Positions 8,225 through 12,297 of a DNA stretch of 64,000 nucleotides are shown here, one piece after another. Numbering within the stretch: the stretch's first letter is position 1; each line of letters begins with the position of its first letter. The DNA lies in contig OZ244057.1 in NCBI GenBank assembly GCA_965215515.1, positions 992,001-1,056,000 on the forward strand, read 5' to 3'. A program made the position numbers and the translations under genes. This DNA comes from Oligoflexales bacterium (GTDB taxonomy: Bacteria > Bdellovibrionota_B > Oligoflexia > Oligoflexales > JAPPIL01). The notes under the pieces are model-generated. The model was given only the letters and a program-made list of their open reading frames with translations, was not told the DNA's origin and made no database searches.

Positions 8225-9796
8225 TTACTCAAGTAGTGCTGACATATCGATCTCGCCCTCTATCAGTTTGGGGAGGAGAGTGTCACGTAGGTGGGCAAGA
8301 TTTTTTGATTCTTGATCGAAATTTTTAACGAAAAAACTGTTCATCACAGTTTCAAAAACAGATATAATGGCACGTTCAGGAACTAAAATTTCGAGGCTTT
8401 TCATACTATTGCCCGTGATTTCTTTGAACGTGCTTCCCGTAGCAACAGCTTTCATCTTGTCAACATTAGCCTTAGACCACGAATACAAAAAATGACTTCC
8501 AAGACAACCTCTCGGAACTAGTGCTTTGAAACCCTGATTTGTGCATAGATTTTTCTCTGAGAAGGCAATATACCCGATAGGTGCTCTTGATGAAATAACC
8601 ACTGCTCCTTTGGGCATCAGTTTAGCACTAGATTTTTTCAAGCCTAGTTCGGTTATATCTGTTGCACCACAAGGAATATGTCTCCAACCCCGCGGTATCG
8701 CCCCCATCCCACTCTCCTCAAACTCATCAGGAAATAGCGAAGCAGTATGGGTGAGTGTGTCACGTTCGGTGCTACTCATGCTTGCAAGCCTTTTTGTGAG
8801 TGCCTCATCCATTGCCGAGAAATTTTCTACGAACTCGCGTGGACTGCACAGGGCAGCTATTACTGCCATCGCCGCCCGTTCCATAGGCAAGCCTGCCTCA
8901 TGTGCTAACTGCTTGGCATGCACAGGGTCAAAATCGACAAGCCACGACTTGAAGATGGCCTCAGCCATGTTTTCGAGGGTGGTGTTGATGCTTTTGTTTA
9001 ATTCTATTTTGTCGTCAAGCACACCCAACGAAGTAGAGATAGCTTCCTGTTGCTTTATCGGTGGCAATTTGACTCGTATTGTTTTGAATTTGTTAGTGGG
9101 AACTCTTTGTCTTCCTGAACTGCCTGTCATTTGTGCAATAGCGTATGGTTTAACCTGATGAGAAACTATCAGGTAGTAAACAAAATCAGGATGAGTGATC
9201 TTATCTTTGTTCCTCATCACAATAAATTCGGTAGAACCGTGTGCGGGGAGTTGACCTTTTGCTTTGAAACGGCTTATTTTCCCGTTTTCCAAACACGGAG
9301 TTATCCTAGCCATAAGGGTATCTCCATCGACAAAACGTGAACCACCCCCGTTAAAAATTTTTGTCTGTGTTGTTGCAACAATTTTATTTTCAGGCACTAA
9401 CATCTGCATATCAACACGAGGGTATAGTTCGCCTCTTAGGATTTTCACAGTTGGATTGATTTCTACCGCATCGTCAAGATACACCTCCTGCCAGCCACGG
9501 CGATAAAAAATCACGCCTTCGGTGTCGATATGTTCTTTGAAGGGCGGGTGGTCGATGGTGTGGTAGTTGACGACATCGCATAAGAAAGGCAACTCGCTGT
9601 CGTCGAGGTCACTGCTGATGTTGACTGCGGTCTTAAACGTAACATCTTTACCCTTGATGGCGAGGTCGATATCAGATGCCACACCATAGTTTCCCATCGC
9701 CCGTGAGCCGAAAATAAGTCCACGACTGACCTCTGGGTATTTTTGCAAGATTGCCGTAATTTCTGCCAGCTGTGCCTCACTCAATCCGAAGCGCAC
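8225..9796 (-). CDS. hsdS: Fusion: MntA-like nucleotidyltransferase antitoxin + type I R-M specificity subunit HsdS
   Basis: N-terminal GSRAMGNYGVASDID (GSx10DxD); then TRD1 (ARITPCLENGK, GSTEF, GSSGRQRV), spacer LDDKIELN..LENMAEAIFKSW, TRD2 (SSRAPIGY, NQGF, GSTFKEI) and terminal LRDTLLPKLIEGEI. Confidence 0.9.
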   Translation of the reverse strand: MRFGLSEAQLAEITAILQKYPEVSRGLIFGSRAMGNYGVASDIDLAIKGKDVTFKTAVNISSDLDDSELPFLCDVVNYHTIDHPPFKEHIDTEGVIFYRRGWQEVYLDDAVEINPTVKILRGELYPRVDMQMLVPENKIVATTQTKIFNGGGSRFVDGDTLMARITPCLENGKISRFKAKGQLPAHGSTEFIVMRNKDKITHPDFVYYLIVSHQVKPYAIAQMTGSSGRQRVPTNKFKTIRVKLPPIKQQEAISTSLGVLDDKIELNKSINTTLENMAEAIFKSWLVDFDPVHAKQLAHEAGLPMERAAMAVIAALCSPREFVENFSAMDEALTKRLASMSSTERDTLTHTASLFPDEFEESGMGAIPRGWRHIPCGATDITELGLKKSSAKLMPKGAVVISSRAPIGYIAFSEKNLCTNQGFKALVPRGCLGSHFLYSWSKANVDKMKAVATGSTFKEITGNSMKSLEILVPERAIISVFETVMNSFFVKNFDQESKNLAHLRDTLLPKLIEGEIDMSALLE

Positions 9797-10212
9797 TCGT
9801 CATACTCCTGCTTGAAATAACTGCGCATGTCACGCAGCACAGGGAAAAATTTTTCACAGGCAAAGTGCAATACATCTTGTAAAATCTCACCGCTGTAGAC
9901 ATGTGCCGCTTTGTTCCTGAATGTCAATGCCTCTATCCATACCTCGCCATCACGAATGTAGCCGTCTTTGTAGGCTCGGCGGATAAGTTGTTTTGAGGTG
10001 TAGGTCGTGTCGCCGTTTTCTTGCAGATAGTCAGAGAGCACATCTTTAGCCAGCTGAAAAGTAAACTCAAAGTGCTTTATTACACCAGTTTTTTCCAGAT
10101 CAGACAGCTTATCGACATGCTCGACACCACTCTTGATAGCCGCAGCAAAGTGCAGGTACGCCTTGTCAAAATTTTCAAATCGCTGTTGCCAGCGTGCTTT
10201 CTTCTCAGCCAT
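9781..10212 (-). CDS. HEPN RNase toxin, HI0074-like (copy A)
   Basis: RWQQRFENF, GVIKHFEFTF, Rx4H motif RNKAAH followed by VY; overlaps the MNT start. Confidence 0.85.
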   Translation of the reverse strand: MAEKKARWQQRFENFDKAYLHFAAAIKSGVEHVDKLSDLEKTGVIKHFEFTFQLAKDVLSDYLQENGDTTYTSKQLIRRAYKDGYIRDGEVWIEALTFRNKAAHVYSGEILQDVLHFACEKFFPVLRDMRSYFKQEYDECASD

Positions 10213-10228
10213 GCTCGTTATCCCTCAC

Positions 10229-10696
10229 TCAATCCGAAGCGCACTCGTCATACTCCTGCTTGAAATAACTGCGCATGTCACGCAGCACAGGGAAAAATTT
10301 TTCGCGGGCAAAGTGAAAAACTTTTTCCATGATTTCTTCTTTGTAAATATGCACAGCATCGTTGCGAGCTTCTAACGCCTTAATCCACACCTCACCGTCG
10401 CGGATATAGCCCTCTTGAAAAGATTTTCTGAGAACATACTTAGGGCCTCTGATTTCATCTTGGGGAAAACCAACGTGCAGTAGGTAATCCCTGAGGACGT
10501 TCCTTGCCAGTTCAAAAGCAAGCTCAAAACGCTTCACAAGGGTTTCTTTCAGGACGTTTTTATCTCCCCCCGTGGCATTGACGATGCCCTTGCTGACTGC
10601 ATCCGTGCCATCCCAACTAACAGCCGCAGCAAAGCGCAGGTACGCCTTGTCAAAATTTTCAAATCGCTGTTGCCAGCGTGCTTTCTTCTCAGCCAT
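10229..10696 (-). CDS. HEPN RNase toxin, HI0074-like (copy B)
   Basis: Same termini as copy A; LVKRFELAFEL, GPKYVLR, Rx4H motif RNDAVH followed by IY. Confidence 0.85.
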   Translation of the reverse strand: MAEKKARWQQRFENFDKAYLRFAAAVSWDGTDAVSKGIVNATGGDKNVLKETLVKRFELAFELARNVLRDYLLHVGFPQDEIRGPKYVLRKSFQEGYIRDGEVWIKALEARNDAVHIYKEEIMEKVFHFAREKFFPVLRDMRSYFKQEYDECASD

Positions 10697-10707
10697 AACA
10701 ACACCTA

Positions 10708-12297
10708 TTATAGATCAAAACCCAGTCCCCGCATATTTTTTTTAATTTTTTGCTCCAGTGTGTGGCTTTTAGCAAAGTTTTCGGCGAGATCACTGGTCAG
10801 TTGCTGCATCTTTTCTGCAAAGGGCATGCCATTATCTTCGCGCTTGGCTAGGCCGACATACAAGCCAGGGGTAAGCACATACTTGTGGACGGCGATTTCC
10901 TCAAGCTTAACGGATTTGCAAAAACCCGCCCTGTCCTTATAGTCGCCATCCTTATTACGCCAGTGGCGATAAGTGTCCGCGATGGCGTTGATGTCATCAG
11001 GTTGCAAGGCACGTTGCGCACGACTAAGCATCGTGCCGTATTCTCTCGCATCAATGAACAACACCTCGTGTGGGCGGGCACGTTTGCCGTCTTTGCCCGA
11101 CTTGTCTTTCGCCAAAATCCAGATACAGGCAGGTATTTGGGTATTGAAAAACAATTGCGGAGGCAAGGCAATCATGCAGTCAACGAGATCAGCAGTGACG
11201 ATATTTTGCCTGATTACGCCTTCGTTGTTGGTTTTGGATGACAACGAGCCGTTCGCCAACACGATGCCTGCGTAGCCACGCGGCGAGAGATGATGGATCA
11301 TGTGTTGCAGCCACGCAAAGTTAGCGTTGTTGCGGGGGGGAAGGCCGTATCGCCAACGCTTATCGTTTTCTAACCTGCCTCTACCCCAATCACTGACGTT
11401 GAAGGGCGGATTGGCCATAATAAAGTCAGCCTGCAAGTCAGGATGTTGATTGTGATGAAAGGTGTCGGCGTGTTGCTTACCGAAATTGAACTCTATGCCA
11501 CGAATAGCCATATTCATGGCGGATAACCGCCACGTAGCGGGGTTGGACTCCTGCCCAAAAAGAGAGATTTGTTGTTTGGCTGCGTCAACGTGCTGCTTGT
11601 CGGCGTGCTCCTCGATAAATTTTTCACTCGACACAAAAAAACCGCCTGACCCCATAGCAGGATCATAAACCCGCCCTGCGTAAGGCTCAAGACAGGCAAC
11701 GATCAGGTTGACCACTGACTTGGGTGTGTAAAACTGACCACCCTTCTTGCCTTCCGCCGAAGCAAACTGACCGAGAAAATACTCGTAGACATGACCGAGA
11801 ACGTCGCGTGCCTCCTGATTGGAGTTGTGAAAACCGATGGTGGCAACCAAATCGACTAACTCACCCAGCCTGATGTCAGCTTGCCGTCGGGCAAAATCCT
11901 TCGGCAACACGTTCTTCAGACGGGGATTTTCCTTCTCCATACTGATCATCGCAGCGTCGATGATTTTGCCAATGTCGGGTTGCTTAGCGCGATCCTGAAT
12001 GCTTCCCCACCTCGCTGTAATCGGTACCCAGAAAATATTTTTTTCCTTGTAATAATCCAGCTTTTCAAGTTCTGCGTCGATATCCTCGTCCTCGCAGTAA
12101 TACTCATCATTAGGATTAGATAGACACCTATGCAATTCCTCACGGAAAGCAACAAAACTGTCCGACACATACTTCAGGAAAATCAAGCCAAGTACAACAT
12201 GCTTATATTCTGCCGCATCGACGCTGTTCCTGAGCTTGTCAGCCGCCTGCCACAGCTTCTTCTCCAACTCCTTGAGCTGTCGATCATCAGCACCCAC
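10708..12297 (-). CDS. hsdM: Type I R-M N6-adenine methyltransferase HsdM
   Basis: LWQAADKLR, EYKHVVLGLIFLKYVSD, GQFYTP, DPAMGSGG (motif I), ANPPFN (motif IV); likely GTG start at 12297 with GAGGAA RBS. Confidence 0.96.
   Translation of the reverse strand: MGADDRQLKELEKKLWQAADKLRNSVDAAEYKHVVLGLIFLKYVSDSFVAFREELHRCLSNPNDEYYCEDEDIDAELEKLDYYKEKNIFWVPITARWGSIQDRAKQPDIGKIIDAAMISMEKENPRLKNVLPKDFARRQADIRLGELVDLVATIGFHNSNQEARDVLGHVYEYFLGQFASAEGKKGGQFYTPKSVVNLIVACLEPYAGRVYDPAMGSGGFFVSSEKFIEEHADKQHVDAAKQQISLFGQESNPATWRLSAMNMAIRGIEFNFGKQHADTFHHNQHPDLQADFIMANPPFNVSDWGRGRLENDKRWRYGLPPRNNANFAWLQHMIHHLSPRGYAGIVLANGSLSSKTNNEGVIRQNIVTADLVDCMIALPPQLFFNTQIPACIWILAKDKSGKDGKRARPHEVLFIDAREYGTMLSRAQRALQPDDINAIADTYRHWRNKDGDYKDRAGFCKSVKLEEIAVHKYVLTPGLYVGLAKREDNGMPFAEKMQQLTSDLAENFAKSHTLEQKIKKNMRGLGFDL

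Follow-up and report, generated by a model that had tools for sequence, protein, structure and literature searches.

The 64,000-nucleotide (nt) window analysed here (Oligoflexales bacterium, assembly GCA_965215515.1, contig OZ244057.1, positions 992,001 to 1,056,000) carries the methylase half of a Type I restriction-modification (R-M) locus in which two HEPN RNase genes are embedded between hsdM and hsdS, and in which a minimal nucleotidyltransferase (MNT), the putative antitoxin of these RNases, is fused to the specificity subunit HsdS. With moderate confidence, this block is read as the secondarily reduced remnant of an imported operon of the order hsdM, HEPN, MNT::hsdS, (cargo), hsdR. The restriction gene hsdR has probably been lost secondarily and not replaced by the RNases, because no hsdR occurs in the genome, the stump of an insertion sequence (IS) lies at the stop codon of hsdS, the second target recognition domain (TRD2) of HsdS has a gap, and relatives of the operon carry hsdR. 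By analogy with characterised pairs, the toxin-antitoxin pair probably still works, and it may hold the remaining block in place. The features concerned are listed below in window coordinates, with lengths in amino acids (aa) and open reading frames abbreviated as ORFs.

10708..12354 (open frame; likely gene 10708..12297), minus strand: hsdM, Type I adenine methyltransferase subunit
10229..10696, minus strand: HEPN-B, 155 aa, HI0074/PF08780-type HEPN
9781..10212, minus strand: HEPN-A, 143 aa, HI0074/PF08780-type HEPN
8225..9796, minus strand: MNT-HsdS fusion, a single 523-aa ORF
9497..9796, minus strand: MNT domain, aa 1-100 of the fusion
8225..9496, minus strand: HsdS part of the fusion, aa 101-523, 423 codons
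8118..8224, plus strand: stump of an IS4/IS5-type insertion sequence, its last 107 nt with the transposase C-terminus and the outer end
10622..10696 and, as second copy, 10138-10212, minus strand: 75-nt direct repeat, the first 25 codons of both HEPN genes
10218..10244, minus strand: vestigial MNT gene start after HEPN-B, a GTG with 7 further codons and TAA

The four ORFs, about 4 kb in total, are free of stops and frameshifts and closely spaced, with an 11-nt gap between hsdM and HEPN-B, a 16-nt gap between HEPN-B and HEPN-A, and a 16-nt overlap between HEPN-A and the fusion. The likely start of hsdM is the GTG at 12297, which has an AGGA 10 nt upstream and coincides with the end coordinate of the initial annotation. 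That annotation described a minus-strand run hsdM, HEPN-B, HEPN-A, MNT-HsdS of the HEPN/MNT kind, with the motif GSx10DxD in the MNT and Rx4H-x-Y in both HEPNs, a description that holds throughout: the ORFs lie where it placed them and match the corresponding Pfam domains, every motif residue is present in the translations, and the nearest solved relatives of the pair are the HEPN (8xdj) and MNT (8xeh_E) of Legionella pneumophila. The hsdM product matches PF02384 N6_Mtase (4.4e-109), PF12161 HsdM_N (1.2e-23) and the PADLOC model MTase_I (2.5e-185), covers positions 6-525 of 526 in a custom HsdM profile, and contains the motifs DPAMGSGGF and NPPF.

Probable loss of hsdR and origin of the island

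The initial annotation saw no hsdR in the window, and the absence extends to the whole genome, a single contig of 2,180,710 bases with a completeness of 93.9%, where TIGR00348, a custom profile, PF04313 and PF18766 all fail to reveal an HsdR. The best genome match to TIGR00348 scores 17.5 bits against a cut-off of 284.55, with none reaching it in window or genome, and when all six frames of the genome were searched with a custom profile made from the HsdR proteins (9) of related operons, none of the 41,547 stop-to-stop frames with a length of at least 30 aa matched at E <= 0.01. The sole PF04313 match, a 395-aa HSDR_N_2+RAMA protein (G000:C1:1369822-1371009; L261:1323-2510), and the sole PF18766 match, a 914-aa SWIM+SNF2 helicase beside lepA, were both rejected as HsdR candidates. 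The genome also holds a 1359-aa frame with an N6_Mtase match (1.2e-8; G000:C1:704468-704836, L003); neither this frame nor the 395-aa HSDR_N_2/RAMA protein is near the island.

The DNA next to hsdS bears the first scar. Directly adjoining the hsdS stop codon is the IS stump (8118-8224), a truncated IS end in the spot that, in relatives, is taken up by DNA running on to hsdR. With an identity of 97-98%, it matches three other copies in the genome (G000:C1:290035-290725, 1159137-1159509 and 1165044-1165572), which share its outer boundary and reach 267-529 nt further inward, the longest encoding the C-terminus of a DDE_Tnp_1 transposase (PF01609, 5.7e-19). No complete copy of the IS was seen in the 4-kb flanks of these three copies. 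The genome, at 2.18 Mb, is about 0.9 Mb smaller than those of two genus relatives (about 3.0-3.1 Mb, rounded), and its small size together with the incomplete IS copies may reflect genome reduction.

The second scar lies within hsdS. The HsdS part of the fusion, matched in two stretches by PF01420 Methylase_S (1.1e-27), consists of TRD1 (about aa 102-245), a long central conserved region, TRD2 and a C-terminal conserved region, and TRD2 is without about 45 N-terminal residues, the break falling at aa 370/371 or about nt 8684-8686. Three alignments agree on this gap: the BLASTP alignment with the related protein P0022 has a gap of 45 residues separating aa 370 from 371, the fusion skips positions 235-278 of a custom HsdS profile, and the Pfam match to TRD2 begins at position 44 of the 168 in the PF01420 profile. 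An AlphaFold2 model of the fusion has a mean predicted local distance difference test (pLDDT) score of 87.9 and a predicted template modelling score (pTM) of 0.74, with pLDDT below 50 only at aa 379-390, and its best fold match is the HsdS structure 1yf2_A (6.4e-18). The C-terminus of HsdS reads SALLE, the same as in P0003, so that the end of the hsdS gene is native.

A close relative of the block dates some of these changes. The 13,094-nt marine metagenome contig X7 is about 93% identical over 8684-10137 and 10622-12365, skips the 484 nt at 10138-10621 (joint 10137->10622), and thereby possesses one HEPN gene, with the body of HEPN-A, together with another TRD2; the similarity to the window ends at 8684, which is the TRD2 joint, and at 12365. 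Both the twin HEPN arrangement and the present TRD2 are therefore recent and lineage-specific. Three further runs of the same study contain the stretch at 0.99 of sampled words, and one of these, X2, covers the block with zero differences.

By its low GC and the lack of a homologous island among the related genomes searched, the island is judged to be horizontally acquired. Its GC content is 0.46-0.49, against about 0.55-0.57 in the flanks. HEPN matches occur in 30 of 61 genomes of the same order (that of the window included), the best in another genome being 41% identical, and MNT matches occur in 63 of 131 genomes of the phylum, where a matching frame over 500 aa is found only in the window genome, apart from an 871-aa frame with one weak MNT match. 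On either side of the island lies a minus-strand gene for a protein of about 325 aa (7036-8022 and 12383-13357), the two being paralogues with 35% identity; in G002, a genome of the same genus, four such paralogues stand in tandem (C1:981879-985968) with no island between them, and the intergenic borders of the island show no usable similarity to that array. The flanking paralogues have lipoprotein-like N-termini (..LSLSTC.., ..MSGGC..) and shared Cys-rich motifs, and they match nothing in Pfam, NCBIfam or PADLOC. Beside the island lie dnaN (4139-5260) and dnaA (5518-6951), both named by eye from their translations, which puts the foreign block within about 1-5 kb of replication-origin genes.

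A family of MNT::HsdS fusions

The fusion is, to judge by its recurrence among sequenced proteins, a family and not an accident. A homologue search with the fusion gave 7068 matches at E <= 0.001 among 7999 scored, and 63 of the best 120 listed (the window protein counted) combine a nucleotidyltransferase Pfam domain with PF01420. When the first 130 aa were compared with 1.84 billion cluster representatives (50% identity), 795 matched at E <= 1e-10; among the best 150 of these, 86 match a custom HsdS profile (64 of them at least 400 aa long), 50 are stand-alone proteins under 160 aa, and 14 are of other lengths without an HsdS match. The family thus spans at least 86 distinct 50%-identity clusters and several phyla, record titles naming, among others, Dehalococcoidia, Spirochaetia, Vicinamibacteria, Poribacteria, Rhodothermales, Binatia, Myxococcota and Gammaproteobacteria.

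The genomic setting of the fusion was surveyed in 80 HsdS loci kept from a scan of species-representative genomes and 80 loci kept from a metagenome scan seeded in the MNT part (alignment A3); the window MNT sequence alone drew no relative from the metagenomes. A single MNT::HsdS ORF is present in 10 of the 80 genome loci (L004, L006 with three units, L008, L013, L014, L025, L028, L048, L060 and L064) and in 2 of the 80 metagenome loci (L094 and L134). The gene order is hsdM, HEPN, MNT::hsdS throughout these fusion loci, with HsdM visible upstream in 11 of the 12 (L014 begins too late on its contig) and a PF08780-type HEPN directly upstream in 11 of the 12 (none in L060). Every fusion locus with enough flank, 11 of 11, has hsdR downstream on the same strand, L134 being left out of the count because its contig ends 371 nt after hsdS. 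Nine of these hsdR genes are confirmed by the Pfam domains HSDR_N, SWI2_SNF2 and ResIII (L004, L006, L008, L013, L014, L025, L028, L060 and L064), eight of the nine also having T1R_D3 and T1RH-like_C domains, whereas the L006 frame runs off the end of the locus. The L094 gene is confirmed by a custom profile, and in L048 a PF04313 (HSDR_N) frame begins about 9.9 kb downstream. The proposal of the initial annotation that RNases stand in for the restriction subunit is not supported by this survey: the R-less state is the exception, and it is accompanied by an IS stump flush with the hsdS stop and a truncated TRD2.

Other, defence-like cargo between hsdS and hsdR is common in the relatives and includes genes for Fic proteins, KwaB-like proteins and DUF4143 ATPases. 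In L004, L008, L013 and L064, the genes found among hsdM, hsdS and hsdR encode AAA_14/DUF4143 ATPase, KwaB-like, Schlafen AlbA_2/HATPase_c_4 and Fic proteins, and these operons are typical swap-prone defence slots. Unfused arrangements occur as well. L068 has the order hsdM-HEPN-MNT and then an hsdS whose start lies 4 nt ahead of the MNT stop, an apparent precursor state of the fusion, and L023 and L070 are unfused with the order MNT-HEPN. Of the 80 metagenome loci, 71 have a HEPN gene immediately upstream of the MNT, and only 4 (L094, L122, L134 and L136) have any hsd gene nearby, so that most relatives of the window MNT are free two-gene modules with HEPN first. Mobile elements yielded no fused form: tblastn of aa 1-160 against plasmids gave 85 matching records, in all of which less than 80% of the query was covered, and the 40 listed rows are all stand-alone nucleotidyltransferase genes, while among 80 HsdS loci from viral contigs the custom MNT and HEPN profiles match none.

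Some loci take the joining of parts further. L006 (G061:C2, 3562-21545) has, on one strand, three consecutive hsdM-HEPN-MNT::hsdS units followed by just one hsdR; its first hsdS is half-size (287 aa) and its third hsdM fragmented, and this row of units may be a shuffling array of specificity cassettes. In its second unit, HsdM and HEPN are fused in a 673-aa ORF (L006:7906-9927) directly before MNT::HsdS. A search with the HEPN part of this protein returned two proteins, P0121 and P0122; the fusion is a hint that the pair may be physically built into the M2S core, and is too rare, at two proteins, to generalise from. L048 encodes a 266-aa fusion of a nucleotidyltransferase and a PF08780 HEPN (L048:8427-9227) directly before a second MNT fused to HsdS, giving two MNT domains for one HEPN. 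Other relatives of HsdS are fused to GIY-YIG (PF01541, in P0059) or to PF04480 and PF18741 (in P0088), and effector-like domains seem to have been joined to HsdS repeatedly.

The toxin-antitoxin pair and its known relatives

The MNT domain of the fusion matches the Polbeta nucleotidyltransferase family PF18765 (aa 12-100, 2.9e-15) and has the motif G30-S31-x10-D42-x-D44 with a third catalytic Asp at D74. In an alignment of 36 fusion proteins, G30, S31, R32, S41, D42, D44 and D74 are invariant, which indicates that the MNT enzyme is conserved and not decaying. Its aa 3-100 align with residues 9-106 of the 108-aa MNT of L. pneumophila (8xeh_E, 4.7e-15), and the modelled domain superimposes on 8xeo_B with a TM score of 0.95 and a root-mean-square deviation of 1.1.

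Both HEPN proteins match PF08780 NTase_sub_bind (HEPN-A 6.4e-25, HEPN-B 4.5e-24), the only match above the Pfam cut-off in either, and both pass the NCBIfam model TIGR01987 (HI0074) with 64.5 and 68.6 bits against a cut-off of 55.8 (4.9e-19 for HEPN-B). The HEPN motif is R99-x4-H104-x-Y106 (RNKAAHVY) in HEPN-A and R111-x4-H116-x-Y118 (RNDAVHIY) in HEPN-B; R99 occurs in every one of 20 related HEPNs, among which conservation is at least 90% for both H104 and Y106. The motif is not universal in the vicinity of the fusion. The first of the twin HEPNs next to MNT::HsdS in L013 (L013:9064-9549) reads RVDTAHHH, with no Tyr, and the HEPN in L028 (L028:9430-9879) reads RNHTENNS, with neither His nor Tyr, which implies that AMPylation of the Tyr cannot control every partner.

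The two HEPN proteins are 58% identical, and their genes form a mosaic in which the first 75 nt from the ATG match at 74 of 75 positions (99%), the last 95 nt or so and about 10 nt past the stop are identical, and the middle is about 45-60% identical. The 75-nt repeat bounds the 484-nt unit (10138-10621) that X7 is without. This mosaic looks like recombination between diverged HEPN alleles at conserved gene ends, and the vestigial MNT start appears to mark the HEPN-B cassette as having been copied together with a HEPN/MNT junction. By comparison with the 93%-identical relative, in which it has no counterpart, HEPN-B is the extra copy.

The closest solved relative of both parts is the type VII toxin-antitoxin HEPN-MNT of L. 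pneumophila (8xdj, 8xeh, 8xeo), whose HEPN toxin (8xdj_A in the PDB) matches HEPN-A at 1.7e-20. According to the Discussion of PMC11586414, its MNT is without the alpha-4 helix and AMPylates Y105 of RX4HXY, and the window pair likewise combines a short MNT without alpha-4 and an RX4HXY motif with a Tyr acceptor. The same text reports that the L. pneumophila HEPN cleaves rRNA and proposes a Mg site at Q44/E47 as the active site; read from the alignment, HEPN-A keeps the Glu and has Lys at the Gln position. Unlike the L. pneumophila pair, in which the MNT is a free 108-aa protein, the window MNT is the N-terminal domain of a Type I specificity subunit, and two diverged HEPN genes are present, the pair being placed inside an hsd operon.

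The HepT/MntA systems of Shewanella oneidensis (SO_3166/SO_3165) and Aphanizomenon flos-aquae follow the same logic of a HEPN RNase with a GSx10DxD nucleotidyltransferase antitoxin, but their folds match more weakly (7bxo, 6m6w, 7ae9) and the window pair represents a different subfamily. With HI0073/HI0074 of Haemophilus influenzae there is also a resemblance, the window HEPNs passing the TIGR01987 cut-off and the MNT matching the HI0073 fold 1no5 with a TM score of 0.81; HI0073/HI0074, in contrast, is a free two-gene pair with no HsdS fusion. By these profile and fold comparisons, the window pair is a member of the HI0074/PF08780 and short-MNT branch. Its gene order, HEPN then MNT, is that of 71 of the 80 related metagenome loci, whereas in HEPN/MNT pairs as treated in the accessible part of PMC3710099 the MNT almost always comes first.

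Among HEPN RNases of R-M loci, PrrC of EcoprrI offers a precedent, its anticodon nuclease gene lying inside a Type Ic hsd locus as the window HEPN genes lie inside an hsd run. PrrC is a large ABC-ATPase-HEPN protein held by contact with the complete R-M enzyme. The window HEPNs, in contrast, are 143-155 aa long and without an ABC-ATPase, their presumed keeper is an enzyme joined to HsdS, and there is no HsdR. By analogy with PrrC, it has been proposed that embedded HEPN RNases are kept latent by R-M proteins for as long as the R-M system has not been neutralised (PMC3710099, PMC3506569 and PMC12707154, in the portions available), and the guard idea for HEPN genes in R-M operons is thus already published in the accessible text of PMC3710099, which also describes HEPN-M as occasionally fused to MNT and to methylase domains. 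A 'guilt-by-embedding' survey (bioRxiv 10.1101/2024.01.29.577857, as far as its text was available) describes cargo, including HEPN proteins, nested in Type I R-M and other defence operons, and neither MNT nor nucleotidyltransferase is mentioned in that text; the window antitoxin differs from such cargo in being fused in frame to a core subunit instead of merely embedded. In the portions of the literature available, a fusion of HsdS with an MNT or nucleotidyltransferase was nowhere found mentioned, though Figure 5 of PMC3710099, whose legend defines 'RM_TRD', may draw it.

Persistence of the block and competing readings

If the block is a reduced remnant, a HEPN/MNT pair of the short-MNT, HI0074/PF08780 kind would have been established between hsdM and hsdS, with the antitoxin fused to the N-terminus of HsdS. 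hsdR would have been lost, the 107-nt IS stump being left in place of the DNA leading to it; TRD2 would have lost about 45 residues at a recombination joint, and a second HEPN allele would have been gained by recombination at conserved gene ends. The MNT domain is predicted to AMPylate Tyr106 of HEPN-A and Tyr118 of HEPN-B as these are made, keeping both RNases silent. With the toxin genes ahead of the antitoxin and the antitoxin forming the head of hsdS, loss of the block would free an RNase, which would explain why the block has outlived hsdR. HsdM is intact, so that M2S may still methylate, possibly with an altered or half-site specificity. AMPylation, toxicity and the addiction effect are properties that we infer, and the fused MNT is presumed to bind either HEPN.

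Several observations weigh against this reading. The former presence of hsdR in this lineage is itself something that we infer from indirect evidence. The IS is truncated, and hence there is no textbook IS-mediated adjacent deletion joining 8117 to 8118. The NCBIfam equivalogs score only 32.9 bits (NF047752, MntA) and 17.7 bits (NF047751, HepT) against a cut-off of 60. The four open ORFs, their kept catalytic residues and the pLDDT of about 80 with which the rest of TRD2 is modelled may reflect selection for a function beyond addiction. A frameshift after the MNT would spare the antitoxin, so that addiction alone leaves the open HsdS part unexplained.

One such function would be that of a working R-less guard or abortive-infection system, in which M2S carries the antitoxin, and loss or blocking of the complex (by Ocr or ArdA) stops the AMPylation of new HEPN, so that the RNases halt the infected cell. 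The intact, tightly packed ORFs and kept catalytic residues are in keeping with it, the conservation of the fusion in many lineages suggests selection for a physical coupling of antitoxin and S subunit, one relative has HEPN fused to HsdM directly before MNT::HsdS (the L006 ORF described above), and PrrC provides the precedent of an R-M complex holding a HEPN RNase latent (PMC3710099 and PMC12707154, in part). For the window copy this is nevertheless improbable. As hsdR accompanies the fusion in all assessable relatives, the family does not work by replacing R, and this universality together with the deletion scars of the window copy, the IS stump and the truncated TRD2, weakens the guard reading here; HsdM::HEPN fusions are rare, with two proteins in the one search, and the antitoxin acts covalently, so that release needs new toxin synthesis or de-AMPylation, for which there is no known trigger.

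Instead, the block could have been retained as an orphan Type I methyltransferase whose methylation serves an epigenetic or regulatory purpose, with the HEPN/MNT pair as an incidental passenger. HsdM is indeed of full length with its S-adenosylmethionine (SAM) and NPPF motifs, and the S subunit keeps TRD1 and both conserved regions. A TRD2 that is short by about 45 residues, with its joint the only low-confidence part of the model, speaks against this, and the island is present in no related genome searched, so that it serves no conserved host function; this explanation is held to be quite unlikely. It is very unlikely that the block is the inert wreckage of a dead operon, inactivated so recently that it is open only for lack of elapsed time, as the IS stump, the TRD2 deletion, the loss of hsdR, the smaller genome and the other copies of the same IS, which share only 267-529 nt with each other, might suggest, since the four ORFs have all catalytic motifs and no stop or frameshift over about 4 kb, the further runs of the same study keep the stretch and X2 does so unchanged, and an unneutralised HEPN toxin would not be tolerated, which means that active HEPNs would require at least a working, expressed MNT.

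The guard question, with its PrrC-like methylase core, belongs to the whole family more than to the window copy. Across the family, with the antitoxin enzyme built into HsdS and, in rare cases, the toxin into HsdM, the methyltransferase core would license the HEPN RNase, and when S is depleted, degraded or blocked by an anti-restriction factor of a phage, newly made HEPN would remain un-AMPylated and shut down translation; an R-less copy could still act as a methylase-guarded abortive-infection module. This extension is a tentative and rather doubtful one.

The preferred reading of the locus, as a secondarily reduced operon remnant, places it, in reduced form, within a variant of R-M-embedded HEPN systems that is widespread and apparently undescribed. 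The proposal that HEPN RNases within restriction operons serve as a second defence line dates from 2012-2013, and the silencing of a nested RNase is known only for PrrC; here, the likely keeper is visible in the sequence as an antitoxin fused to the DNA-specificity subunit. The family would thereby link the integrity of the restriction complex to toxin control in a way that is directly testable. The window copy is less remarkable in itself: it illustrates operon decay in which hsdR was probably the first gene to be lost, and it suggests a possible role of the toxin-antitoxin pair in keeping the remaining genes from being lost.

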